A DNA stretch of 64,000 bases from Chloroflexota bacterium (GCA_028872875.1 JAGWOC010000001.1:49983-113982); one strand, 5' to 3'. Shown: positions 7,382 to 33,355, counted from the first letter of the stretch. Notes: generated by a model from the sequence alone, not told the origin. Made by a program: numbers and translations.

Positions 7382-8896
7382 TCAGCGCCCGGCGATCACC
7401 TGCTCCGCCCCGATCGGGCGCAGGCCCTCCGGCGTCCAGCGCAGGTACAGGGCGTTACGCCCCGGCGGCTGCTGTCCCTCCGCGTACGCCTGCGCCGTCA
7501 GGTCGAACGCCACGGCGTCGCCGTAGAGCGCGCGCGCGACGCCCGGCACCCACGTGTACTGCTCCATCGGGTTCGTCCACAGCCCGTCGACGATGTAGAT
7601 CGTCGTGCCGGGCGGCACGGTCGGATAGTTCGCGCGCAGCTCGTCCACCAGGAGGCGCCAGCGCGCGGTCTCGCGCCCCGACTGCGTGTCGCGCGCGTAC
7701 GTCTGCCAGCCGTAGAGCGCGGCCACGGCCGCCACGAACACCAGCGCGAGCACGTTCACCGGCAGACGCGCCCAGCGATGCACGCCACGCAACCGCTCGT
7801 ACACGGCGTACGCGGCGATGGCGGCAAGCGGCGCGAAGAACGCCACCGCCGAGTAGGTGTAGCGCGACGCCGTCCAGATCTTCACCGGCACGAACGGCAG
7901 CAGCGCCAGCGCGATCCCCGGCACCGCGACGAGCGCGATCTTCGGGCCGCGCGCGGCGACCGCCAGCGACGCCACGATGACGGCGCCCGCGATCACCCAG
8001 CGCAGCGTGTCCGGGTCGTGCGGGATCGCCTTCGCCGGGTAGGCCATGAACGACAGGTACACCGCGTAGTTCGAGAACACGTGCGGTCCCCAGGTGTAGC
8101 CGTCGAACTTCAGTTGCGGGCAGGTGCACGTCTCGTAGAACCCCGTCCATCCCGCCGCCAGCGCCGTGAACGGCGCCGCGTGCAGCAACAGCCGCTGCGG
8201 CGCCCGCCACCAGCGCCGCGAGTACACCATGTACGCCACCACAACGACCGGCGCGAAGACGAACGAGCCCTCGTTGGCCAGGAAGCCGAGCGCGAACAGC
8301 ACGAACGAGAGCGCGAACGCCCGCGGGTCGCGCTCACCGTCGTCCGCGTAGGCCACCATGGCGAGCAGCGAGCCGAGCACGAAGAACATCGCCAGCACGT
8401 GCGGCAGCGCCGTAATGTACGTCACCGTGTCGAAGTGCGAGCCGGAGATGCCGAAGATCAGCGCCGAGACCGCGCCGATCGCCGGCCGCTTCGTCACCCG
8501 CGCGACGAGCGCGTACAGCAGCACCATCGATGACAGGTGGACGATGAGGTTGACGATCCGCCAGGGCATGGCGTTCAGGCCGAACGCACGCCATTCGACC
8601 ACGTACACGAGGCCCATCAACGGCCGCCAGTTCGGCACGAGATCCTGCATGCGGACCGTGTCGATGAGGTACTGGAGGTTCCCGCGCATCTGGATGTCGC
8701 CGAGCACGACGAAGTCGTCGCCTCCGAAGAAATAACGGAGCGTCGGCGCGTGGACGGCGATCGTGATGAGGAGCGCGGTGAGCAGTCCCCAGTGCCGGCG
8801 CGCGAACCGCAGGGCGTCGCTGGCGATGAGCGACGCGGCGGCCCGCGGCCGACGGAGGGCGAACCCATCCGCGGTCACGGTGATCGGGTACTTCAT
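7382..8896 (-). CDS. polytopic membrane glycosyltransferase (GT-C fold, PMT/ArnT/GT39-like)
   Basis: 504 aa with more than 10 predicted TM helices. The N-terminal loop carries GGDDFVVLGD after the first TM helix. Assignment is by pattern only. Confidence 0.45.
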   Translation of the reverse strand: MKYPITVTADGFALRRPRAAASLIASDALRFARRHWGLLTALLITIAVHAPTLRYFFGGDDFVVLGDIQMRGNLQYLIDTVRMQDLVPNWRPLMGLVYVVEWRAFGLNAMPWRIVNLIVHLSSMVLLYALVARVTKRPAIGAVSALIFGISGSHFDTVTYITALPHVLAMFFVLGSLLAMVAYADDGERDPRAFALSFVLFALGFLANEGSFVFAPVVVVAYMVYSRRWWRAPQRLLLHAAPFTALAAGWTGFYETCTCPQLKFDGYTWGPHVFSNYAVYLSFMAYPAKAIPHDPDTLRWVIAGAVIVASLAVAARGPKIALVAVPGIALALLPFVPVKIWTASRYTYSAVAFFAPLAAIAAYAVYERLRGVHRWARLPVNVLALVFVAAVAALYGWQTYARDTQSGRETARWRLLVDELRANYPTVPPGTTIYIVDGLWTNPMEQYTWVPGVARALYGDAVAFDLTAQAYAEGQQPPGRNALYLRWTPEGLRPIGAEQVIAGR

Positions 8897-9167
8897 CTCT
8901 TCAGTTGTTGCTCACGAACGGTGGCGGCAGGGGATGCCACACCAGGACGAGCGCTATTGTACGGAGGCGCGTCACTTGACGAAACGGCATAACCGTCGAG
9001 TGCCGGGTGTTATTTTCCCACCATCTTGACGGCCCACGGTGGGAATCCCGGCGTCACCGACTCGCCGGATCCGGCCCCGAAGCGGCGCGCTCGCACACGC
9101 TGAGACCGCGCGATCGATGGAGCGGGTACGAGCGAGTCCGAATCCGCCGAACGCCAGTGGCGCGCGG

Positions 9168-10502
9168 CTACGACGCGGCGAGCGCCCCCTCCAGCGAGGC
9201 CGCACCGTCGCGTTCCACGGCGTCCGCCGCCTCGAGCGCTGACTTCAAGCAGATCTCCGTCAGGTTGCCTTCGATGTCGCGCGCGTCGCCGGCGAAGTAG
9301 AGGTTCGCCGCCGTCTGCGAGCGCAGCGGCACGCGCATCGCCCGCTGCGGCGGCGTCTGCCGAAGCGCCGAAACGCGCACGTTGGGCAGCGACCGATCGA
9401 CCACAACGGCCTCGCGCCACCCCGCGAACCAGCGGTCGAGCCCGGCTTCGAGCGCCGCGCGGCGCCCGGCCAGCAGACCCTCATCGTCCGCCTCGTCGGG
9501 CGCGAGGTACGCCATCGCGTGCAGCAACTGCGCGCCCGGCGGCGCCAGGTCCGGCGTCACCTCGGAGTGCAGGCTGTAGTACAGGTCGCGCTCAATATCA
9601 AAGACGTACGCCAGATCCGTGCGCAGGCGCCGGCTGAACCCCAGATCCACGCACAGCGCCCGCACATCTTCGACGCCCGACCATCGCCCAAGCTCATCCG
9701 CCAGCGGCGAGCCATCCTCGGCGATCGACGGGGCATCCTGCGGCGGCAGGGTGCAGATGAACGCTGCGGCCTCGTGCCGCGCATCCTGCGTGACTGCCGC
9801 GATGACGCGTCCGCCGCCGGACTCAAGCCGCCGTACGTGCGCGCCGGTCACCAGCGCGCCGCCGTTCGCGCGCAGCACGCCGATGAAGGCATCGTACATC
9901 GTGCGCCAGCCGCCGCTCATGTAGCCGACGTAGTCTTTCGCGAAGAGGTTGCGCTGCAGGTGGCCCAGGAGGAATCGGGCGCTCAGCGCACGTGATGGGC
10001 GCGTGTAGGTGTTGACCGTGCCCAGCGCGACGGCGAATCGCCGCAGCCGCGCGTCGGAGACGTGCGCGTCGACCCAGTCGCCGTAGGTCTGGTCGCCGAG
10101 CGTCTCGGGCTTCGCGAAACGGATCGCCGCCATCAGCAGCGGCAGGCGCAGGCGGCTCGCGAGCGGGAAGAGCGGCGTGCGAAGCGCCTCGTGCGGGCGC
10201 GCGCCCACGGCGCCGAAGCGGTCGCCATCGGCCCAGTAGCTGCGAGTCGGCTGCACGTAACCATGCGGAATGTCCGGCACGCCAAGGCGGCGCAGGATCT
10301 CGCCGAGCACGCCGCTCTGCGGGCGATAGACCGCGTGCGGGCCGTAGTTGAGGGTGAAGCCCCGATCCTCGTACGTGTAGGCGCGCCCGCCCGGCTGATT
10401 GCCCTGTTCGAGCACCTTCACGCTGCAACCGGCCTTCGCGAGCAGCGCCCCGGTCGCCAGACCCGACACACCGCCGCCGATGATCACGACATCGCGGTTC
10501 AT
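9168..10502 (-). CDS. FAD/NAD(P)-binding oxidoreductase of the phytoene-desaturase (CrtI/CrtD) / amine-oxidase family
   Basis: ATG 10502 gives MNRDVVIIGGGVSGLATGALLAKAGCSVKVLEQGNQPGGRAYTYEDRGFTLNYGPHAV, a Rossmann GxGxxG plus CrtI-like GGRA motif. The start overlaps the anti-sigma stop (ATGA). The upstream 58 codons of the track ORF are junk. Confidence 0.8.
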   Translation of the reverse strand: MNRDVVIIGGGVSGLATGALLAKAGCSVKVLEQGNQPGGRAYTYEDRGFTLNYGPHAVYRPQSGVLGEILRRLGVPDIPHGYVQPTRSYWADGDRFGAVGARPHEALRTPLFPLASRLRLPLLMAAIRFAKPETLGDQTYGDWVDAHVSDARLRRFAVALGTVNTYTRPSRALSARFLLGHLQRNLFAKDYVGYMSGGWRTMYDAFIGVLRANGGALVTGAHVRRLESGGGRVIAAVTQDARHEAAAFICTLPPQDAPSIAEDGSPLADELGRWSGVEDVRALCVDLGFSRRLRTDLAYVFDIERDLYYSLHSEVTPDLAPPGAQLLHAMAYLAPDEADDEGLLAGRRAALEAGLDRWFAGWREAVVVDRSLPNVRVSALRQTPPQRAMRVPLRSQTAANLYFAGDARDIEGNLTEICLKSALEAADAVERDGAASLEGALAAS

Positions 10503-10804
10503 GGCGCCTCCTCTTCCTCCACTGTGGCCGTCAGGGCCTCGATCACGACCTCGATCGGCGAGCGGCCGTACGTTTCGTCGACGATCGCGCGGGTGAACTC
10601 CATGTACGCGGCGCCGGGCGTGCCGGGCTCGATGTGCGTTGCGGCATTGCCGCGCACGAAGCGCACGGTGCGGCACAGCGCGCGGTATGCGGCAGCGCAG
10701 CCGGCGCAGCCCGCGCGGTGCATCTCGACCGCCGCGCGCGCGTCACCGGACAGGTCGCCGTCGAGCAGGTCAGACAGCAGGGGCTCGATGTCACAGCAGG
10801 TCAT
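10499..10804 (-). CDS. zf-HC2-type anti-sigma factor
   Basis: 101 aa, MTCCDIEPLLSDLLDGDLSGDARAAVEMHRAGCAGCAAAYRAL, with an H-x3-C-x2-C zinc motif and an acidic tail. Its ATG (10804) overlaps the sigma-factor stop and its TGA overlaps the oxidoreductase ATG. Confidence 0.75.
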   Translation of the reverse strand: MTCCDIEPLLSDLLDGDLSGDARAAVEMHRAGCAGCAAAYRALCRTVRFVRGNAATHIEPGTPGAAYMEFTRAIVDETYGRSPIEVVIEALTATVEEEEAP

Positions 10805-11484
10805 CGCACCTCCTCGTGGCCTCGCTTCGCCACCTGCTCCCGCGCCCGCTTGATATGCCCCATCGTCGTGCAGGCGTTGCACTCGTTCTTCTGGTCGACG
10901 AGGGCACAGCGGTGCTCGAAGACCTCCGTCATCGCCTTGCGGCCGCGGTGCAGCTCCGTCTTGACGGACGCGAGCGAGGCTCCGATCGCGTGCGCCGCCT
11001 CTTCGCGCGAGAGCCCGAGCTGGTCGCACAGCACGATGGCCGCGCGCTGCTTCGCGGGAAGCGACATGGTGATGCAGTTGATGCAGGTGGCCGCGACCTC
11101 CCTGACCTCGGCCGCGCGCTCGGGCGTCAGGTAGAGGCTCTGTTCGATGTTGCGCGCCAGCTCGGAGTTCTCTTCGAACCACTGCCAGCGTCTGTCGAGG
11201 TCCCACGGCTTGCGGGCGCGCTGGTGGTCCAGGCAGGCATTCGTAGCAATCCGGTACAGCCACGTGCCGACCGACGATCGCAACTCGAACGTGCCGAACT
11301 TCGCGTACGCCTTGAGCAGCGTCTCCTGGACGAGGTCTTCGGCATCTTCGGGCGAACCGGTCATCTTCTCGCACAGGCGCAGGAGCGCGCCGCGGTGCTC
11401 CTCGGCGATCTCGCCGAAGGCCTCCTTGTCGCCCGCCAGCGCGCGCTCGAGGAGCGAGACTCCGTGCGGCTCAGGTGCACCCAC
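10801..11484 (-). CDS. ECF (sigma-70 family group 4) RNA polymerase sigma factor with a Cys-rich C-terminal extension
   Basis: Sigma2 region LVQETLLKAYAKFGTFELRSSVGTWLYRIATNACLDHQR and sigma4 region LPAKQRAAIVLCDQLGLSREEAAHAIGASLASVKTELHRGRKAM, followed by an extra roughly 38 aa (FEHRCALVDQKNECNACTTMGHIKRAREQVAKRGHEEVR). The likely start is GTG 11484 (VVGAPEPHGV), with AAGGGGGA 6 nt upstream. Confidence 0.8.
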   Translation of the reverse strand: MGAPEPHGVSLLERALAGDKEAFGEIAEEHRGALLRLCEKMTGSPEDAEDLVQETLLKAYAKFGTFELRSSVGTWLYRIATNACLDHQRARKPWDLDRRWQWFEENSELARNIEQSLYLTPERAAEVREVAATCINCITMSLPAKQRAAIVLCDQLGLSREEAAHAIGASLASVKTELHRGRKAMTEVFEHRCALVDQKNECNACTTMGHIKRAREQVAKRGHEEVR

Positions 11485-11605
11485 AACCCTGTCCCCCTTT
11501 CTGATTGGTTGGACGCGCCCGTGCACAAAAAGGTTACATCGCGCTGGCCGCGTGCGAGGTGCCCCGAGCGTCCGCGTGCTTCGCCGCGCGGCTACGGCAC
11601 GAAGA

Positions 11606-11797
11606 TCAGGCTACGGGCTCCGGCGGCAGCAGCGGTTCGAGCGAAGCGAGCAACCGGGGCGCATGCTCGGCCGCCGCGCGCCACAGGCGATCGCCCACGA
11701 TCTCGTCGTAGTCATGCACCAGTACGTCTCGCATTCCGGCGACAGCGCGCCACGGGATCTCCGTGCTTCCAAACTCAGGGTCATGCCGCCACTTACC
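11606..11797 (-). pseudogene. HepT-like (DUF86) toxin, C-terminal remnant only
   Basis: GKWRHDPEFGSTEIPWRAVAGMRDVLVHDYDEIVGDRLWRAAAEHAPRLLASLEPLL contains the R-x4-H-x-Y catalytic motif of HepT/DUF86 RNases. No in-frame start and no N-terminal half: the upstream in-frame codons are Arg-rich and overlap the end of the neighbouring gene. No MntA-like nucleotidyltransferase partner is visible. Confidence 0.5.
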
Positions 11798-11834
11798 CCG
11801 CCGTGCCGCGCTCCTGTCGCCGACGCGGCGCGCC

Positions 11835-12806
11835 TCACACCGCCTTCGGCTGGAAGATCGGCCGCACCTCGCCGTCCACGACGGTAACGACAAGCGCCAG
11901 CTTCGCGTACAGCCCCGGGTCGAGCGACCTGACGAAGGCGCCGATGTTCTCGTGCTCGGCATACTCGTAGATGGCGATCAGCGCGACGCCCCGCACGTCG
12001 GCCGCGACGGCGTCGAGGGCGGCGCTCGCGTCCTTTAGCCGCCTGCGCACGAGGCGGCGCAACAGCGTCCCGTCCGTCGGGTCGACGCGCGGCGGCGCCT
12101 GCGCGATGGCGAAGCCCGTGACGCCGAGCGGTTCGGCCGGGAGCCGCTGCACCGTCCACGCCTCGTCCGTCTCGAACTCGACGGCAGCCCCTGTCCCGAG
12201 CGCCTGCGACACCTGGGCGATCCGGTCGAACAGCACGTCGCGCGCCGCCGCGGACTGCGGCGCCCGCCGCATGCGGTTCGCGTTCACGTAGAAGGTGCCA
12301 TCGACGCGCTCGGTGATCTGCGTCCACCAGCGGCTCAGCCCTCCCGTCACCGAGGCGTAGCCCCCCTCATCGCGGAGCTTCGCGACCTGCACCTGCACCG
12401 GCAACGCCACCTCGCCCCGGCCGCCGGGCGAGAGCGGCGCCGCCGCCTGCTGGACGCGCTGCACGAAGTCCGACGCGTCCGGCTCCGCCGCCGGCACCGA
12501 CGCGCGCGGCGGCACCCAGAGCAGATGCGGCCCGCGCACGAGGCCGCCCGAGAGCCGCTCCTCCATCATCGCCCGCGCGTCCTCGGCCGCCGGATCCCCC
12601 TGCGGCTCCCAGAGCGGCGCGACGGCGAGCGCCAGCGTCCCCTGCGGCCCCTCGGCCACGAACACCGGCGGCTCACCGCCGGATGCCGAAGCCAGCGCGT
12701 AGGCGCGCCCGCTGCGGCCGGCGAACCACTCGATGACCAGCGCCGCCGCGTATGCGGACAACCGCTCCACTCCCGCATCAGCGGCGCCCGGCGGCTCACC
12801 GGCCAT
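11835..12806 (-). CDS. hypothetical protein (323 aa), function unknown
   Basis: The real frame begins at ATG 12806 (MAGEPPGAADAGVERLSAYAAALVIEWFAGRSG...). The first 90 codons of track ORF 11835..13076 are an alternative frame of the GT4 gene. The product has ordinary amino-acid composition, ends IAIYEYAEHENIGAFVRSLDPGLYAKLALVVTVVDGEVRPIFQPKAV, and overlaps the GT4 3' end by 11 nt. Confidence 0.5.
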   Translation of the reverse strand: MAGEPPGAADAGVERLSAYAAALVIEWFAGRSGRAYALASASGGEPPVFVAEGPQGTLALAVAPLWEPQGDPAAEDARAMMEERLSGGLVRGPHLLWVPPRASVPAAEPDASDFVQRVQQAAAPLSPGGRGEVALPVQVQVAKLRDEGGYASVTGGLSRWWTQITERVDGTFYVNANRMRRAPQSAAARDVLFDRIAQVSQALGTGAAVEFETDEAWTVQRLPAEPLGVTGFAIAQAPPRVDPTDGTLLRRLVRRRLKDASAALDAVAADVRGVALIAIYEYAEHENIGAFVRSLDPGLYAKLALVVTVVDGEVRPIFQPKAV

Positions 12807-19487: not shown

Positions 19488-21486
19488 CCCGCTCCGGCTC
19501 GTGCTTCGGGCGGCCGCACGCGGGGCAGAGGTCGAAGCCCGCGCGCTTGCGGGTGAACTCGAGCACGGTGCGAACGAGCTCGGCGTGGCTCCACGTCAGC
19601 GGCGACACGGAAAGCGGCGCATCGCTGTACGGGTCCACCTGCTCGGCGAGCACGCCGCTCGGCAACGCGCGATCCGCCACCCACTGCATCAGCTCGGCGG
19701 CGGGCTGCAGCTCGGCCTCTGAGGTCGCGCGCGCGATCCGCCACTGCGCGAGCCAGAGCGTGCAGATGAACCACGGGTTGCCGGGGACATCGCCGGCATC
19801 GGGCGCACGCTGGTACTGATCGCGCTCGTAGCGCGCCAGGCCGCCGACCGGCGTCTTCACCCAGAGGCGCTCTCGCACGTCCTCCATCGTGCTGACGATG
19901 CGCGGGTCGGAGGCGTCGAACATGCCGAGCTGGAACAGGCCGCCGACGCTCGCATCGACGGTCATGTCGGGTGTGTAACCGCCATCGTCGTCGGGCGTCA
20001 GCGTCCGCACGAAGCGCCGCTCGCCTTCGTGCCAGAAGTGCTCGATCGTCGCCTGCTTCATCCGTTCCGCGGCCCCCGCCATGTGCTCCGCGTCGTCGCG
20101 GTCGCCGAAGGTGGCGAAGAAGTGGGACGCCGCCATCAGCCCGGCCCAGGTCGCCGCCACCGTCCAAGCGTGGACGCCCCAGCGCTCCTCCCAGAGATCG
20201 TACGAGGGCTTCGGCAGCCCCTCCGCGTCGACGTAGCGCAGCAGGAACTCGGCCGCCGGGCGGATCATCCCCTTGTAGAACGGCGTGATGAACTCGACGT
20301 CATGATGCCGGTCGAAGTGCCGCCAGAGCGCCCAGAGCGGCAGGCCCGTCTCGTCTTCCTGGATCGGCAACTGACGCCTGCCGTCGCGCACCCACGGGTG
20401 CCACGAGCTGGCGAGCGTGCCGTCGGTGTTGAACTTGTGCATCCAGTAGCCTTCCGGGTTCTGCACCTTCGCCAGGAAGTCGAAGGCCGGCCGCGTCGTG
20501 CCCTCGTAGCCGGCGTCGTCGAGCGCCGAGGCGACGAGCGCGCTGTCGCGCGGCCAGACGTACGCGTAGGTGTCGCGCGCGTAGGTGGCGATGTCGTAGT
20601 CGCTCGCCGCGACGATGCCGCCGTGGTGGTCGATCTGCGTGCTGATCGTCAGCAGGCTGCGCTTGAAGAGCCGGGCGACCGCGTCCGGCACGCCCTCGAG
20701 GTCGTTCTCCTCGGCGTTCGCCCAGACCTTCCAGTAGGCCTTCGTGCGCGCCTGCAAGCGCGCCGGCGACTTGTCGACGATCACCGCGTTCACGGTGGCG
20801 ACATCCTGGTACGAGGTCCCGCAGCCGATCCAGTACCACGCCGTCTCCGAGCCGTTCTCGCCGAGGACGAGCTGGAGCGCGCCGACGGAGTCGACGGCCC
20901 CCTGCACGACGGTGCTGCCGCTCAGCACGCCGTCCTCGGCGTCGCGCCAGGTGCCCTCCTTGCCGTCGCTCTCCTTTTTGCCGACGGCCCACTGGTCCAG
21001 CCCGGGGGGCCGGTTGCCCGTCTGGCCGCTCATCAGGAACCAGCGGCCGCCCTTGTAGTGGATCAGCGCCCGCTGCGACAGGTCGTAGTACGCCGTGTCG
21101 CCGATCTCCGTGCCGCCGATGTGGAAGTCGTTGTGGAAGAAGAGGCGCACCTCGCGCTGCTGCGCGCGCAGGTTGGTGACGACGAGCCGGCGCACCAGCG
21201 CGTACTCGTGGAAGTCCACCACGTCGGTACAGGCGATGCGCAGGCCGGCGGCGTCGTTCGTCAGGACGACGTCCGTCGCGAGCGTCTCCTCGACGTAGCG
21301 CTGCTCGACCTGCCAGGAGTCGTGCACCCAGCTAAAGCTGCCGTCGGCCCAGACGCCGAGCCCGAAGCGATGCCCGGCCGTGTGGTTGCGCCCGCCGATG
21401 TGCGGGAAGTAGATATCGCGCAGGTGGTAGCGGTCGTCGAAGTTGACCAGCAGACGGCCGTTGCCGATGGGGATGTCTCGCGGCAT
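19459..21486 (-). CDS. glycoside hydrolase family 15 (glucoamylase/glucodextranase/trehalase-type)
   Basis: 675 aa with an N-terminal beta-sandwich region and a C-terminal (alpha/alpha)6-type region carrying YAYVWPRDSALVASAL and WEERWGVHAWT, a GH15-like catalytic region. Confidence 0.8.
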   Translation of the reverse strand: MPRDIPIGNGRLLVNFDDRYHLRDIYFPHIGGRNHTAGHRFGLGVWADGSFSWVHDSWQVEQRYVEETLATDVVLTNDAAGLRIACTDVVDFHEYALVRRLVVTNLRAQQREVRLFFHNDFHIGGTEIGDTAYYDLSQRALIHYKGGRWFLMSGQTGNRPPGLDQWAVGKKESDGKEGTWRDAEDGVLSGSTVVQGAVDSVGALQLVLGENGSETAWYWIGCGTSYQDVATVNAVIVDKSPARLQARTKAYWKVWANAEENDLEGVPDAVARLFKRSLLTISTQIDHHGGIVAASDYDIATYARDTYAYVWPRDSALVASALDDAGYEGTTRPAFDFLAKVQNPEGYWMHKFNTDGTLASSWHPWVRDGRRQLPIQEDETGLPLWALWRHFDRHHDVEFITPFYKGMIRPAAEFLLRYVDAEGLPKPSYDLWEERWGVHAWTVAATWAGLMAASHFFATFGDRDDAEHMAGAAERMKQATIEHFWHEGERRFVRTLTPDDDGGYTPDMTVDASVGGLFQLGMFDASDPRIVSTMEDVRERLWVKTPVGGLARYERDQYQRAPDAGDVPGNPWFICTLWLAQWRIARATSEAELQPAAELMQWVADRALPSGVLAEQVDPYSDAPLSVSPLTWSHAELVRTVLEFTRKRAGFDLCPACGRPKHEPERVSFLSERLG

Positions 21487-23908: not shown

Positions 23909-24081
23909 GGTTCCAGCTCCGGTGCGGCGTACGTTGGTTCGGGGGATGATAGTGCGAGACGCCGCCCACGCTCAAGGCCGCCGGATCCGGCCACCAGGAC
24001 TGCCCGCGTTTGACCCCCCGCTCCCTTGCCCCTCCCCCGCCCCCGGTGCTACGTTCGCATTCCGAGCACCGGAGGTGGCGC

Positions 24082-25185
24082 ATGAAGTTCGGCATCTTCT
24101 ACGAGCTGTCCGTGCCCCGGCCCTGGGGGCCGGAGTCCGAGCGCACCGTCTACCTGAACGCGCTCGAACAGGTGCGCCTCGCCGACGAGCTGGGCTTCGA
24201 CCAGGTCTGGTGCGTCGAGCACCACTTCCTCGAGGAGTACTCACACTCGTCGGCGCCCGAGCTCTTCCTCACCGCCTGCGCCATGCAGACGCAGCGCATC
24301 CGCATCGGCCACGGCATCGTCGTCTGCGTGCCGCAGTTCAACCACCCGGTGCGCATCGCCGAGCGCACGGCCGTGCTCGATATCCTCTCCGGCGGCCGGC
24401 TCGAGGTGGGCACCGGCCGCTCCGCGACGTGGACGGAGCTGGCCGGCTTCCAGGCCGACCCCGACGAGACGAAGAAGACCTGGGACGAGATCGTCCGCTG
24501 CCTGCCGAAGATGTGGACGCAGGAGCGCTTCAGCCACCAGGGCCGCGCCTTCTCGATGCCCTCCCGCGCCATCCTGCCGAAGCCGTACCAGAAGCCGCAC
24601 CCGCCGCTGTGGGTCGCCGTCACCAGCCCCGGCACCGAGCTCGACGCCGCCGACCGCGGCCTCGGCAGCCTCGGCCTGACCTTCGGCGGCATCGCCGAGC
24701 AGGAGACGAAGATCGCCGAGTACCGGCGGCGCATCCGCGTGTGCGACCCGGTCGGCGACTTCGTGAACGAGCAGGTGAACACCGTCAACTTCCTCTACTG
24801 CCACGAGGACGCGGCGACGGGCATCAAGACTGGCCAGCGGCTCGCGGGCACCTTCAACTACCTCGCGGCGCAGCTCCTCGCCGCGCGCGAGGCCTACCCC
24901 ACCCGCTCGTACCCCTCGCTCGGCCTGCTGCCGCAGCTCCGGCAGGAGGCCGCCGGCCCCGGCGACGGCGCCCGCGTGCCCGAGGGGCTGTGCATCGGCG
25001 ACCCGCAGCGGGTCATCGAGGTGGTGAAGCGCTGGGAATCGGTGGGCGTCGACCGCATCAACTTCCTGCTGAACGCGATGGAGACGGTGCCGCAGGAGCA
25101 GGTGCTCGAAAGCCTGCGCCTCTTCGCCAGCGAAGTAATGCCGGCATTCGCGACGGAAGCGGCGGCACCGGCCGCGGCGGGGTAG
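24082..25185 (+). CDS. LLM-class flavin (FMN/F420)-dependent oxidoreductase (luciferase-like monooxygenase)
   Basis: GGAGGTGG lies upstream of ATG 24082. MKFGIFYELSVPRPWGPESERTVYLNALEQVRLADELGFDQVWCVEHHF is the canonical LLM TIM-barrel N-terminus. Confidence 0.85.
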   Translation: MKFGIFYELSVPRPWGPESERTVYLNALEQVRLADELGFDQVWCVEHHFLEEYSHSSAPELFLTACAMQTQRIRIGHGIVVCVPQFNHPVRIAERTAVLDILSGGRLEVGTGRSATWTELAGFQADPDETKKTWDEIVRCLPKMWTQERFSHQGRAFSMPSRAILPKPYQKPHPPLWVAVTSPGTELDAADRGLGSLGLTFGGIAEQETKIAEYRRRIRVCDPVGDFVNEQVNTVNFLYCHEDAATGIKTGQRLAGTFNYLAAQLLAAREAYPTRSYPSLGLLPQLRQEAAGPGDGARVPEGLCIGDPQRVIEVVKRWESVGVDRINFLLNAMETVPQEQVLESLRLFASEVMPAFATEAAAPAAAG

Positions 25186-25216
25186 CAGCGAGCGCGCGGA
25201 GCACGAGGAGAGCGCC

Positions 25217-25432
25217 ATGTGGTGGCAAGACGTGCTATGGGGCCTCTGGAACGGGCTCAGCGCCTGGGTGGTCCTTATCGCCCACGCGTTCGGCGCCTGG
25301 GAGCGCTTCCCGTTCTACAACGTCGCGAGGAGCGGCAACTGGTACGACCTGGGATTCCTGATCGGCGCGGGCTCTCCGTTGCTCGGCGCCGCCGGCGGCC
25401 GCGGCCAAAGCCGGCATCGGACGCGCGGTTGA
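25217..25432 (+). CDS. hypothetical small hydrophobic protein (71 aa)
   Basis: GAGGAGAG lies 5 nt before ATG 25217. MWWQDVLWGLWNGLSAWVVLIAHAFGAWERFPFYNVARSGNWYDLGFLIGAGS is Trp-rich with one likely TM segment. Confidence 0.45.
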   Translation: MWWQDVLWGLWNGLSAWVVLIAHAFGAWERFPFYNVARSGNWYDLGFLIGAGSPLLGAAGGRGQSRHRTRG

Positions 25433-25499
25433 ACGCGAGCCCTCAGCGCGCCTCGGTAGCGATGAGATGCGCTGCGCCGAGAGGCCCCCACGGAGGACG

Positions 25500-26333
25500 A
25501 TGAAGTACGGCTTCGTGCTCCCCTTCGGCGACGCGCGCACCGCCGCGGACCTCGCGCACGAGGCGGAGGCGGCCGGATGGGACGGCTTCTTCGTCTGGGA
25601 GCCGGTGTGGGGCGTCGATGCCTGGGTGTCGCTTGCGGCGGCGGCGATGCGCACCGAGCGCATCCGTCTCGGGACGATGATCACCCCGCTCTCGCGCATG
25701 CGCCCGTGGAAGCTGGCGAGTGAGGCCGCCACGCTCGACAACCTCTCCGGCGGGCGCGTCATGCTCTCCGTCGGCCTCGGCGCCGTCGATACGGGGTTCG
25801 CCGAGTTCGGCGAAGTCACCGGCCGCCGGACGCGAGCCGAGCTGCTGGATGAAGCGCTCGACATCGTGACCGGGCTCTGGCACGGCCAGCCGTTCAGCTA
25901 CGACGGCAAGCACTACACTGTGCGCCCGACGACGTTCGCGCCGCCGCCGCCGCCCGTGCAGCAACCGCGCATCCCCATCTGGGTCGTCGGCGCCTGGCCG
26001 CACCCGCGGTCGATGCGCCGCGCGCTGCGCTACGATGGTCTCCTGCCGAGCGCACGCGGCGAGGACGGTGCGATGCGGCAGGCGACACCGGACGAGTTGC
26101 GCGACATCGCGTCGCACGTCAGCGCGCGCCGCGCAGGCGCGGTGCCGTTCGACATCGTCGTCGAGGGCACGACCCCGGCCCAGGATGCGGATCGCGCGGC
26201 GGCGAAGGTGCGGGCCTGGGCGGACGCCGGCGCGACGTGGTGGCTGGAAGCGCGCTGGGACGCTGAGCAGCAGCCGGGCGCGCTGGATGGCCTGCGCCGG
26301 CGCATCGCCGCGGGACCGCCCGGCGGCGGCTGA
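25500..26333 (+). CDS. LLM-class F420/flavin-dependent oxidoreductase
   Basis: GGAGGA lies upstream of ATG 25500. MKYGFVLPFGDARTAADLAHEAEAAGWDGFFVWEP...LSGGRVMLSVGLG matches the luciferase-like family. Confidence 0.8.
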   Translation: MKYGFVLPFGDARTAADLAHEAEAAGWDGFFVWEPVWGVDAWVSLAAAAMRTERIRLGTMITPLSRMRPWKLASEAATLDNLSGGRVMLSVGLGAVDTGFAEFGEVTGRRTRAELLDEALDIVTGLWHGQPFSYDGKHYTVRPTTFAPPPPPVQQPRIPIWVVGAWPHPRSMRRALRYDGLLPSARGEDGAMRQATPDELRDIASHVSARRAGAVPFDIVVEGTTPAQDADRAAAKVRAWADAGATWWLEARWDAEQQPGALDGLRRRIAAGPPGGG

Positions 26334-27178: not shown

Positions 27179-28450
27179 ATGACCACGACCGCATCCGAAA
27201 TCGAGCAGAAGGCGCGAGAGGCGAAGGCCGCAGCGCGCAGGCTGGCCACGCTTTCGACCGAAGTCAAGAACGCCGCGCTCAACGCACTGGCCGACGCCCT
27301 CGGCGCGCGCGCCGCCGAGGTCCTCGCCGCCAACGCCGCCGACCTCGAACGCGGCCGCGCCGACGGCCTCTCGGCCTCCGTCCTCGACCGGCTGACGCTG
27401 ACGGAGGCGCGCCTGCGGGGCATCGCGGACGACGTCCGGAACGTCGCGCGCCTGCCCGACCCGGTCGGCGAGATGCTGGAGATGCGCACGCTGCCGAACG
27501 GGCTGCTGGTGGGAAAGATGCGCGTGCCCTTCGGCGTCATCGGCGCGATCTACGAGAACCGCCCGAACGTCACCGTCGATATCGCCTCGCTCTGCCTGAA
27601 GGCGGGCAGCGCCACGATCCTGCGCGGCGGCAAGGAGGCGCTCCAGTCCAACATCGTCCTCGGCCGCATCATCACGGAGGCGCTGCGCGCCGCCGGGGCG
27701 CCCGCGGGCGCCGTGCAGGTCATCGAGTCCAGCGACCGCGCCATCGTCAGCGAGATGCTGGCGATGAAGCAATACATCGACCTCATCGTCCCGCGCGGCG
27801 GCGAGGAGCTGATCCGCTTCGTCGAGCAGCACGCGTCGATGCCGGTGCTGATCGGCGGCATCGGCGTCTGCCACACGTACATCGACCGCGCAGCCGATCT
27901 CGACAAGGCCCGCGATATCGTCGTCAACGCCAAGACGCGCCGCTACAGCATCTGCAACGCGCTCGACACGCTCGTCGTCCACGCCGATGTCGCGCCGCGC
28001 TTCCTGCCGATGGTCGCGGCCGCGCTCGCCGAGAAGGGCGTGGAGTTGCGCTGCGACGAGCGCGCGTTCGCCCTGCTCGAAGGCAGCGAGCGCGTCGTGC
28101 GCGCGACGGACGCCGACTTCGGCAAGGAGTTCCTCGCGCTCGTCGCGTCCGTCAAGGTCGTCGATTCCTACGAGACTGCCCTGGACTTCCTCTACCGCTA
28201 CAGCAGCGGCCACTCCGACGCCATCGTCACCGAGGACTACACGACGGCGATGCGCTTCCTGCGCGAGATGGACACCGCTGTCTGCTACGTGAACGCCAGC
28301 ACGCAGTTCACCGACGGTGCCCAGTTCGGCCTCGGGGCGGAGATCATCGATGCCACGCAGAAGTCGCACGCACGCGGCCCCGTCGGCCTGCGCGAGATCT
28401 GCACCTACAAGTGGGTCGTCTTCGGCGACGGCCAGGTCAGGCCGGCATAG
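27179..28450 (+). CDS. proA: glutamate-5-semialdehyde dehydrogenase (gamma-glutamyl phosphate reductase)
   Basis: Collinear with E. coli ProA: VPFGVIGAIYENRPNVTVDIASLCLKAGSATILRGGKEA, the nucleophile C in VCHTYIDRAAD...NAKTRRYSICNALDTLVVH, and C-terminal STQKSHARGPVGLREICTYKWVVFGDGQVR. An alternative GTG start lies at 27170. Confidence 0.9.
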   Translation: MTTTASEIEQKAREAKAAARRLATLSTEVKNAALNALADALGARAAEVLAANAADLERGRADGLSASVLDRLTLTEARLRGIADDVRNVARLPDPVGEMLEMRTLPNGLLVGKMRVPFGVIGAIYENRPNVTVDIASLCLKAGSATILRGGKEALQSNIVLGRIITEALRAAGAPAGAVQVIESSDRAIVSEMLAMKQYIDLIVPRGGEELIRFVEQHASMPVLIGGIGVCHTYIDRAADLDKARDIVVNAKTRRYSICNALDTLVVHADVAPRFLPMVAAALAEKGVELRCDERAFALLEGSERVVRATDADFGKEFLALVASVKVVDSYETALDFLYRYSSGHSDAIVTEDYTTAMRFLREMDTAVCYVNASTQFTDGAQFGLGAEIIDATQKSHARGPVGLREICTYKWVVFGDGQVRPA

Positions 28451-29198
28451 CGTTGCGGCGCCGGTCGCGCGTCCGCAACACGAGCGTGTCACCGTCGCGA
28501 TAGAGCATCGGCACGGACTCGAAGACGTCGAGCTGCGACGCGAACCAGAGGTCCTGCTCGAAGCCCAGGCCGAGCAGCGCGCGGCCGTGCGCCGACTGAC
28601 GGAGCGCGCGCATCGCGTCGCCGCGGTACCAGCGCCAGAGGTGGTACGCCGCCCACGCCTCGTCGGTCATGGCGACCGTCTCGTCGGCATCGCGCACGGC
28701 CTCGACGATCGCTCCGGCCGCCACGCTGTCTTCGAGGCTGAACGCCGTGCCGCGCTCGCTGCCGGCGCAGACCAGCGCCAGGTCGAGCTTGCGGCGCGCG
28801 GCCTCGTCGAGCAGACACCGCGCGGCCGCCCGGCGGTTCACCAGCGCGGCCACGGCGACGACCGGCGCCGCCGCGGCGGCCGCAACAGCGCGCGTGCCGT
28901 TGGTGGTGAACACCACCGCCGACTTCCCCTTGAGCGAGAGGCCCGCTAACTCGGCCGGCGAGTTGCCGTAGTCGAAGCCCGGCACCGGCGCCGACTTCAC
29001 CTCCCCGCAGAGCAGCGAGAAGTTGCGCAGCGCGAGCTGCCGCGCGTCGCGCAGCGTGCCCGCGACGATGGCGCGCAGCAGCCCGCGCTCGAACATCGTG
29101 ACGAGCGATGACGACGCGCGCAGCACGTCCACCACCCCGACCGCGTGGCCGTCAGGCGCACGCAGCAGCGCGGGCGTCAGTGCGACGGTGATCCGCAT
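28437..29198 (-). CDS. 2-phosphosulfolactate phosphatase (ComB) family protein
   Basis: 253 aa. MRITVALTPALL...VGVVDVLRASSSLVTMFERG resembles the ComB N-terminus (VIDVLRATTT). By pattern only. Confidence 0.5.
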   Translation of the reverse strand: MRITVALTPALLRAPDGHAVGVVDVLRASSSLVTMFERGLLRAIVAGTLRDARQLALRNFSLLCGEVKSAPVPGFDYGNSPAELAGLSLKGKSAVVFTTNGTRAVAAAAAAPVVAVAALVNRRAAARCLLDEAARRKLDLALVCAGSERGTAFSLEDSVAAGAIVEAVRDADETVAMTDEAWAAYHLWRWYRGDAMRALRQSAHGRALLGLGFEQDLWFASQLDVFESVPMLYRDGDTLVLRTRDRRRNAMPA

Positions 29199-29372
29199 GA
29201 CCCGAGCCTACGCCGCGACGGCCCGTCCGTCGAGGCGCCGCGTCAAGCACGGCAAGCGCCGACACGAAGATGATGCGCGCCCGCGTCAAGTTGACAGTCC
29301 GTTGGCAGCAGTGCCCTCCCCACACAGAGCAGGGCTCCCGGTGTCCGGCCAGCGATCGCATATGATGCGAGC

Positions 29373-31189: not shown

Positions 31190-33355
<2,166 letters not shown>

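Follow-up and report, generated by a model that had tools for sequence, protein, structure and literature searches.

A putatively autoregulated ECF sigma factor/anti-sigma factor/flavoenzyme operon of Dehalococcoidia with a cysteine-rich sigma-factor extension and recurrent sigma/anti-sigma fusion

INTRODUCTION

For sigma factors of the extracytoplasmic function (ECF) type, control usually lies with a separate anti-sigma factor or else with a C-terminal extension of their own, and reviews describe the sigma factors with Cys-rich tails as lacking an anti-sigma factor. Here we analyse a three-gene operon whose products are an ECF sigma factor bearing a Cys-rich C-terminal extension, a zinc-binding anti-sigma (ZAS) protein and a flavoenzyme. 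The operon lies on the minus strand of a 64,000-nt stretch of DNA (hereafter the window; Chloroflexota bacterium, GCA_028872875.1, JAGWOC010000001.1:49983-113982), at positions 11484-9168 counted, like all positions below, from the window start. The Dehalococcoidia clade that carries this module unites both kinds of control, the Cys-rich extension and the anti-sigma factor.

The closest known systems are CorE/CorE2, ECF41 and the ECF56 pair SigG1-RsfG. In CorE and CorE2 of Myxococcus xanthus (ECF44, now in ECF238) a C-terminal Cys-rich domain and a Cys motif in the linker, before sigma-4.2, are both essential (PMC4937300, PMC6851896) and both determine metal specificity (PMC4937300). CorE-like factors are defined by a strictly conserved CxC (PMC6851896) and a Cys-rich C-terminal domain of 21-50 residues; they have no cognate anti-sigma factor and, as a group, are not autoregulated (supplement of 10.1101/2019.12.11.873521). 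The tail reads C-x4-C-x2-C-x-C in CorE and CC-x3-C-x2-C-x-C in CorE2, and a different Cys tail, that of OrbS, senses Fe(II), which blocks binding to core polymerase (PMC9023288). ECF41 factors have an experimentally defined promoter, TGTCACA-n16-CGTC, which precedes an adjacent COE oxidoreductase gene or operon (PMC3426412).

The module analysed here passes the generic tests for an ECF sigma factor, a ZAS protein and a member of the amine-oxidase superfamily, and it passes no specific family test. It is best described as an uncharacterised ECF/ZAS variant that combines a CorE-like on-board Cys element with recurrent sigma/anti-sigma fusion and a flavoenzyme output. The Casas-Pastor tables, in the part available to us, contain no ECF group with a ZAS and an Amino_oxidase neighbour, and the module's motif strings do not occur in the available part of the accompanying sequence tables; our literature search found no paper linking Dehalococcoidia with ECF sigma and anti-sigma factors. 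The arrangement is real, conserved and more structured than a first-pass annotation of the locus had seen.

RESULTS AND DISCUSSION

Three overlapping genes form a conserved module

The operon and its upstream region comprise the following features:

11538-11512, minus strand: ECF-type promoter TGTAACC(TTT)-N16-CGTC, by motif match (-35 element at 11538-11532, -10 element at 11515-11512).
11497-11492, minus strand: ribosome-binding site GGGGGA, 7 nt 5' of the sigma GTG, read from the sequence.
11484-10801, minus strand: ECF sigma factor gene (GTG start, stop codon at 10803-10801, 227 aa).
11406-11209, minus strand: sigma-2 domain, residues 27-92 (Pfam Sigma70_r2, 2.8e-18).
11085-11074, minus strand: CxxC motif C134-I-N-C137 in the first sigma-4 helix, from the alignment.
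11076-10930, minus strand: sigma-4 domain, residues 137-185 (Pfam Sigma70_r4_2, 8.9e-12).
10917-10804, minus strand: C-terminal extension of the sigma factor, residues 190-227, with C193-x8-C202-x2-C205 (10908-10870) followed by a variable basic tail.
10804-10499, minus strand: gene of the anti-sigma factor, a predicted soluble class-I ZAS protein (ATG start, 101 aa, containing HRAGCAGC; zf-HC2, 4.7e-7).
10798-10796 (C3) and 10720-10697 (H29-x3-C33-x2-C36), minus strand: putative anti-sigma zinc ligands, from their invariance in the alignment.
10672-10652, minus strand: conserved anti-sigma motif RTVRFVR, from the alignment, in which PGTPG is conserved as well.
10502-9168, minus strand: FAD oxidoreductase gene (ATG start, 444 aa, GGGVSG at residues 9-14; Pfam Amino_oxidase, 1.4e-24, and NAD_binding_8).
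10804-10801 and 10502-10499, minus strand: ATGA overlaps of the sigma with the anti-sigma gene and of the anti-sigma with the oxidoreductase gene, read from the sequence.

The ATGA overlaps that the first-pass annotation had reported at both junctions hold at every coordinate. A longer sigma open reading frame (ORF), extending to 11526, has its start upstream of the predicted promoter and was set aside; at the place matching that of the window's ribosome-binding site, all relatives carry sites of the GAAGGG/GGGAG type before the sigma gene. The G+C content of the operon equals that of the rest of the window (0.70).

We examined the loci of relatives found in a scan of one genome per species, which yielded 13 close relatives, all of them metagenome-assembled genomes (MAGs) of Dehalococcoidia or Chloroflexi. 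The order sigma, anti-sigma, oxidoreductase is kept in 12/12 complete related loci, and the window's flanking genes are absent beside the module in all of them. Of the 12 loci, 10 retain the 4-nt overlap of the sigma with the anti-sigma gene and 8 the ATGA between the anti-sigma and enzyme genes; the other junctions have gaps of -1 to +19 nt or MAG frameshifts. Orthologs of the enzyme, 56-71% identical to the window protein, follow the anti-sigma gene directly in 12/12 loci. These data support the view, put forward in the first-pass annotation, that the three genes form a translationally coupled, co-transcribed unit.

Both ends of the module belong to narrowly distributed families. The sigma factor has 120 listed homolog clusters at 66-92% identity in a collection of 5.8 billion proteins, and every source-named cluster among these 120 is from Dehalococcoidia or Chloroflexi. 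The family is sharply bounded: when 1.84 billion representatives were searched with a profile, three full-length clusters (at 50% identity) scored above 420 bits and the next full-length match scored at most 144 bits. The enzyme has 188 homologs at E<=1e-10; identity to it is 57% or more throughout the top 120, and those with a named source among these 120 again all come from Dehalococcoidia or Chloroflexi. Judged by this distribution, the module appears to be specific to one clade of Dehalococcoidia. Since the gene order is kept in 12/12 loci, the overlaps are mostly kept and the sigma-factor extension is present in all 120 clusters, the arrangement is, on comparative grounds, far beyond chance.

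A closely related contig, L013 (coverage 1.6x, nucleotide identity 88-95%), follows the window collinearly to either side of the module but lacks about 1.96 kb. Its junction at L013:1570-1612 corresponds to window 11056-9099, and the missing part comprises the C-terminal third of the sigma gene, the anti-sigma gene and the whole oxidoreductase gene. Either a strain has lost the module or the contig was assembled wrongly.

A conserved ECF-type promoter precedes the operon

The first-pass annotation had predicted an autoregulatory ECF promoter 5' of the sigma gene, and such a promoter is present. The stretch at 11540-11508 reads GATGTAACCTTTTTGTGCACGGGCGCGTCCAAC, and the pattern TGTAACCTTT-N13-CGTC(T/C)AA lies at an equal distance from the sigma start in 15/15 loci examined (the window, L001-L013 and L052). 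The full motif occurs once in the 64-kb window, immediately before the operon. A second pattern match, at 19975-19999 on the plus strand, falls within a GH15 gene and does not have the extended motif; a match with three mismatches, at 9927-9953, is inside the enzyme gene, and a second match in L004 is inside a coding region. We rejected all three as targets, and they are consistent with chance.

An unrelated promoter of the oxidoreductase gene's own would have spoken against a shared regulon. There is no space for one because the genes overlap, and we found no sigma-70-like promoter anywhere in 8700-11800. After the enzyme gene we saw no convincing candidate for a terminator. We infer from the position and conservation of the promoter that the operon is autoregulated and that, within the available DNA (the 64-kb window and 8-17 kb of flanking sequence in relatives), it would be its own sole target. 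It probably makes up the whole regulon.

This layout recalls ECF41 (SigJ-like) factors, for which one adjacent oxidoreductase, including Amino_oxidase types, is likewise the sole target, and which also have a conserved linker and a C-terminal extension, regulatory in ECF41. The promoter TGTAACC-n16-CGTC shares with that of ECF41 the spacing, the -10 element and 5/7 bases of the -35 element. Unlike the module, ECF41 factors carry an extension of about 100 aa of the SnoaL_2 type and have no anti-sigma factor, whereas here there is no SnoaL_2 match and a Cys tail of about 38 aa is combined with a ZAS protein. Furthermore, the ECF41 signature motifs WLPEP and NPDKL are absent, and the SigJ structure 5xe7 is a weak match (3.8e-4).

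The anti-sigma factor keeps an RsrA-type ligand set and is recurrently fused to the sigma factor

By its match to zf-HC2 (PF13490, 30.2 bits against a cut-off of 22.2) and by its H-x3-C-x2-C with a Cys ligand further N-terminal, the second protein of the operon is a ZAS protein, and we predict it to be soluble because it has no hydrophobic segment: its maximum Kyte-Doolittle score over a 19-residue window is 0.8, which leaves no transmembrane helix. C3, H29, C33 and C36 are invariant in 49/49 anti-sigma sequences, split and fused alike, whereas Cys4, Cys44 and the acidic EEEE tail are not conserved. The initial description of a minimal 101-aa HxxxCxxC protein with an EEEE tail is therefore right as to length and zinc motif, while the tail is not a property of the family.

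The four invariant residues form the same Cys-His-Cys-Cys set as in RsrA. SigR-RsrA (ECF12) resembles the module in its soluble anti-sigma factor of about 100 aa, in this zinc site and in its autoregulated operon. It differs in its promoter, in its output (thioredoxin-system genes rather than a flavoenzyme) and in that the module has a Cys cluster on the sigma factor; with the RsrA model TIGR03988 the score is 19.2 bits (cut-off 62.5) and with the SigH/SigR-type model 62 (cut-off 251). The ligand set is in line with the SigR-RsrA-like logic suggested earlier, but by the model score the protein is not an ortholog of RsrA. Because the anti-sigma factor keeps the RsrA-type set in 49/49 sequences, a thiol-redox input is plausible; this half of the proposed 'redox- or light-sensing switch' can be retained, whereas the light analogy with LitS/CrtS is unsupported, as is the carotenoid desaturase that accompanied it.

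In the ECF56 system SigG1-RsfG of Streptomyces tsukubaensis, a C-terminal extension and a co-transcribed soluble anti-sigma factor both control the sigma factor, which is the combination seen here. The best NCBIfam models for the core of our sigma factor (residues 11-191) are TIGR02960 (128 against 264.75 bits) and PRK08241 (131 against 240 bits), which, judging from their SnoaL-type extended architecture, would stand for ECF56, and the SigG1 structure 7qh5 is its second-best sequence match in the PDB. These scores are about half of the cut-offs, SnoaL_2 is missing, and RsfG has no Pfam domain whereas the anti-sigma factor here is a ZAS protein.

In 38/120 sigma clusters the ZAS domain is fused to the C-terminus of the sigma factor, giving proteins of 330-370 aa with variable, basic linkers of 26-62 residues. 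Several fusion clusters come from more than one contig and source. A neighbour-joining tree built on the sigma part requires at least 8 changes between the fused and the split state, a rough count as the tree is unsupported. At the fused loci the enzyme gene is still directly next and the promoter is unchanged. As comparative (Rosetta-stone) evidence, these natural fusions argue strongly for a 1:1 sigma/anti-sigma pair. ECF48, ECF52 and ECF53 also hold a sigma factor and a zinc-finger anti-sigma domain in one polypeptide. However, their extensions include extracytoplasmic domains as well as transmembrane helices, and proteolysis is assumed to activate them, whereas the window genes are split, the fused domain of the relatives is soluble, sits on a flexible linker and ends about 100 aa after the start of the ZAS domain, and fused and split forms interconvert repeatedly.

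A search with the anti-sigma factor returned 16 stand-alone family members and no further enzyme fusions beyond one, P0180 (JGI sample 3300056388, 10.7-kb contig). In this 547-aa protein the ZAS anti-sigma factor is fused in frame to the oxidoreductase, and a separate sigma gene precedes it with a 4-nt overlap. It is a single case, which could be a real fusion or the result of a 1-nt error at the ATGA junction.

Invariant cysteines frame the sigma-4 domain

The sigma factor scores 87 bits with the sigma70-ECF model TIGR02937 (cut-off 42.9) and by this match is an ECF (group 4) sigma-70 factor; it remains below every NCBIfam equivalog cut-off. All 120 homolog clusters have the extension of about 38 residues that follows region 4; this excludes a frame artefact and settles the earlier concern that orthologs might lack it. 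In an alignment of 121 family members C38, C134, C137, C153, C193, C202 and C205 are invariant and C84 is conserved at 98%. The first sigma-4 element reads C-I/V-N-C in 121/121 sequences, and C193-x8-C202-x2-C205 begins where the last sigma-4 helix ends. The 'H/C-rich HxC...CxxC' extension of the first-pass annotation is accordingly a genuine Cys-bearing tail with three invariant cysteines, whereas its histidine is not a conserved part: position 191 is variable (H in 72, T in 30, K in 12 and D in 4 of 121). That annotation had missed the invariant C134-x2-C137 at the start of sigma-4, together with the invariant C38 and C153.

The two Cys elements go together beyond the family as well. Among the best 150 representatives of the profile search, CxxC and C-x8-C-x2-C are found together in 24 (co-occurring in 24/24 of those covered), which comprise the family and, at about 30% identity, a wider group; in one more representative a single Cys has been lost, and the remaining full-length matches have neither element. 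The Dehalococcoidia family alone has C38 and C153; C84 turns up in the wider clade, but only sporadically.

The wider clade itself (P0250-P0349, e.g. L053:5001-5852) consists of proteins of 231-336 aa, mostly 270-283 aa, from varied metagenomes, and is apparently an undescribed ECF clade. In its members the first sigma-4 helix bears H-x3-C-x2-C, the ZAS signature, and sigma-4 is followed by C-x8-C-x2-C; they also have an additional tail of about 65 aa that matches nothing in Pfam. Only one locus had usable flanks, and these show no anti-sigma gene beside the sigma gene; P0250, P0254 and P0260, which are on short contigs, have no neighbour in common.

We used a natural fusion, P0003, whose numbering is one residue ahead of that of the window sigma factor, for structure prediction with AlphaFold2 (AF2). 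Sigma-2, sigma-4 and the anti-sigma domain are predicted confidently, while the linker and residues 196-211 have a pLDDT below 50. Residues 196-211 are the loop with the CxxC pair of the Cys-rich domain and the sole part of the extension that is unfolded in the model. Such a loop is what would be expected of a ligand-dependent element, and it proves nothing. A Foldseek search with the P0003 model matched generic ECF sigma structures only.

A thiol- or metal-gated switch is the favoured reading

With moderate confidence, and reasoning from sequence patterns and from analogy, we read the locus as an autoregulated module in which release of the sigma factor would be gated by a thiol or metal signal and a metal would staple the tail to sigma-4. 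Our confidence is much higher for the operon, the promoter and the assignment of the partners, and lower for the nature of the signal. The sigma factor would recognise its own promoter, TGTAACC-N16-CGTC, and so drive expression of itself, the anti-sigma factor and the flavoenzyme. At rest, the anti-sigma factor would hold the sigma factor 1:1, with a zinc site made up of Cys3, His29, Cys33 and Cys36. Oxidation or alkylation of the thiols, or loss of the zinc, may free the sigma factor, which would raise the levels of all three proteins until fresh reduced anti-sigma factor closes the loop. On the sigma factor, C134-x2-C137 and C193-x8-C202-x2-C205 may together bind a metal (Zn, possibly Fe-S) and so staple the tail to sigma-4; by analogy with CorE/CorE2, this site could be needed for the active conformation or tune it. 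The flavoenzyme would be the output, acting as an oxidase or desaturase on a small molecule.

Several points weigh against this reading. Many ZAS proteins are not redox-sensitive, and a C-H-C-C set is no proof of sensitivity. The anti-sigma factor reaches only 19 bits with the RsrA model, whose cut-off is 62.5, and the AF2 model of the fused P0003 has a pTM of 0.38 and does not resolve how sigma and anti-sigma parts dock. The scan for further promoters covered the 64 kb of the window and 8-17 kb of relatives' flanks, so that more distant targets are possible, and the gap in L013 means either that the module is dispensable or that the contig is misassembled. Finally, the Cys motif of the sigma factor could be purely structural.

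This last point leads to a simpler account, in which an ordinary ECF/ZAS pair has sigma-factor cysteines that form a structural zinc site and an anti-sigma factor that answers an unrelated signal or mere stoichiometry. Structural Zn(Cys)4 staples are common, redox insensitivity is frequent among ZAS proteins, and the Cys motif stays invariant whether or not a lineage has an anti-sigma factor, as it would for a folding element. We nevertheless hold this account to be rather unlikely: all characterised sigma factors that have such a tail (CorE, CorE2 and OrbS) use its cysteines for regulation, and C38, C84 and C153 are conserved only in the clade with the anti-sigma factor (C84 being sporadic beyond it), suggesting added thiol chemistry.

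Given those precedents, the sigma factor could also be a metal sensor of the CorE/CorE2/OrbS type, its Cys cluster binding Cu, Zn, Cd or Fe as the switch and the anti-sigma factor buffering basal activity. The precedents had gone uncited in the first-pass annotation, which called a Cys cluster on the sigma factor itself unusual; unusual it is, but the claim was overstated. The architecture matches that of CorE/CorE2, with a Cys motif at sigma-4 and a Cys-rich C-terminal tail (here about 38 residues with three invariant Cys), both invariant, and in CorE/CorE2 both elements are essential and set the specificity, while Fe(II) blocks the binding of OrbS to core polymerase. The differences are nonetheless considerable. 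Compared by published spacings, the module has CxxC (121/121) rather than the CxC of CorE-like factors, and its C-x8-C-x2-C is unlike the tails of CorE, CorE2 and OrbS. CorE-like factors have no anti-sigma factor and are not autoregulated, whereas here a ZAS gene overlaps or is fused in every locus and the operon is predicted to be autoregulated. CorE-like factors are found in a metal-related gene context, whereas the module has no linked genes for metal efflux, a chaperone or an oxidase. With the SigZ model (ECF238s9; TIGR02959), which served as a proxy for ECF-group hidden Markov models, the sigma factor gives 84.8 bits against a cut-off of 168.65, less than with SigM, SigW and PRK08241. All in all, we regard a CorE-type metal sensor as quite unlikely.

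The repeated fusion and splitting of the sigma and anti-sigma genes has left the putative switch in one-chain and two-chain forms that can be compared with each other. The compact module, with one promoter, one output gene and no membrane part, is a test case for the regulation of sigma-4 by a Cys tail and is attractive as an orthogonal, possibly redox-gated expression switch; it is thus relevant to researchers on ECF regulation and to builders of orthogonal switches. That the hosts are uncultured is a practical limit, and no known principle is overturned.

The third gene encodes a flavoenzyme outside the curated desaturase families

The enzyme matches PF01593 (87.6 bits against a cut-off of 19.8) and PF13450 and belongs to the amine-oxidase/GR2 flavoprotein (protoporphyrinogen oxidase (PPO)/phytoene-desaturase) superfamily; at this level the first-pass assignment to a phytoene-desaturase/amine-oxidase family is correct. 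Its AF2 model (pLDDT 93, pTM 0.91) has 3ka7, 2ivd, 4rep and 5mog as top Foldseek matches, at 15-21% identity (E-value 1.7e-27 for 3ka7). The structural neighbours comprise an uncharacterised Methanosarcina oxidoreductase (3ka7), protoporphyrinogen oxidases, the CrtD-like 4rep, CrtI (4dgk) and amine oxidases; the best TM-score is 0.82, with the plant phytoene desaturase 5mog, and that with 2ivd is 0.73.

All curated NCBIfam models are missed by a wide margin. The CrtI family TIGR02734 gives 85.9 bits, mainly over the N-terminal FAD-binding part, against a cut-off of 238.1; PRK07233 gives 105 against 252, HpnE 76 against 283 and protoporphyrinogen oxidase TIGR00562 (HemY) 56.3 against 97.85, and the CrtD and CrtO models are far below their cut-offs. 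Neither among the module's conserved neighbours nor among 37 heuristically called ORFs of the window did we find carotenoid genes, including phytoene synthase, prenyl synthase or cyclase. Since the enzyme is below every curated cut-off and no carotenoid genes are nearby, the label 'carotenoid desaturase' is unsupported. The score and the missing crt context speak against membership of the phytoene desaturase CrtI family, and a score below cut-off, with likeness in fold only, against HemY. From its family matches the enzyme would be a flavin oxidase or desaturase of a putative small-molecule substrate.

The enzyme might not be an output alone. Its hydrogen peroxide or another reactive product could oxidise the zinc-thiolate of the anti-sigma factor and free the sigma factor, so that the substrate would induce the operon with no dedicated receptor. 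Many enzymes of the amine-oxidase family make hydrogen peroxide. The enzyme is linked to the sigma and anti-sigma factors as strictly as these two are to each other, it is usually translationally coupled to them, and its family is essentially confined to the module (188 homologs, with the named ones among the 120 listed all from this clade); the in-frame anti-sigma-enzyme fusion P0180 fits as well. However, there is only this one fusion, which a 1-nt error at the ATGA junction would create, and Wecke et al. saw no part in signalling for the genes in the analogous place beside ECF41. We consider a sensory role of the enzyme quite improbable.

A bolder version has the five cysteines of the sigma-factor motifs bind a redox-active cofactor such as Fe-S, so that the sigma factor would itself sense oxygen or an oxidant and form, with the tethered ZAS protein and the flavoenzyme, a three-part circuit induced by the enzyme's product. 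This is a long shot; if true, the wider clade of 270-283 aa would be an unrecognised family of 'ZAS-in-sigma' one-component regulators.

Most doubtful of all, to the point of being highly improbable, is a light or singlet-oxygen/redox-sensing pair that switches on a carotenoid desaturase, as in LitS/CrtS, CarQ-CarR and RpoE-ChrR: the enzyme does have the fold of the phytoene desaturase superfamily (TM-score 0.82 to 5mog, with 4rep and 4dgk among the matches), some source annotations of homologs read 'phytoene dehydrogenase-like' and singlet-oxygen sensors exist among ZAS proteins, yet CrtI scores 86 bits against 238 with CrtD, HpnE and CrtO far under their cut-offs, identity to any desaturase is 15-21% while PPO and amine oxidases score equally, and a lone desaturase without genes of a substrate pathway in the neighbourhood or among the 37 window ORFs makes no carotenoid operon.

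Genes surrounding the operon

Just upstream of the sigma promoter is a remnant of a HepT/HEPN toxin gene (11636-11764, minus strand). It matches only the last third of the profile (7.6e-10) and keeps the R-x4-H-x-Y motif (RDVLVHDY), and we saw no MNT antitoxin partner. Between this remnant and a GT4 glycosyltransferase gene lies a conserved ORF of about 320 aa (11835-12797, minus strand), which matches neither Pfam nor NCBIfam; L013 has a C-terminus 91% identical to its own. The gene that comes directly after the operon on its downstream side (7382-8896, minus strand) encodes a polytopic membrane protein of 504 aa whose one match, to DUF6541 (20 bits), stays below the cut-off of 29. Its counterpart in L013 is 97% identical, and in other genomes it is not linked to the module.

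Scans of the window for tRNA genes and Rfam families were empty. Further away are two adjacent luciferase-like, possibly F420- or flavin-dependent, monooxygenase genes (23953-26333, plus strand) and a 2-phosphosulfolactate phosphatase homolog (28437-29207). The called ORFs of the window are otherwise housekeeping genes and a KatG-type catalase-peroxidase gene (31190-33355, minus strand; two peroxidase-domain stretches, 2.2e-71), which points to contact of this Dehalococcoidia lineage with oxygen or peroxide and is in keeping with the favoured reading of the operon.

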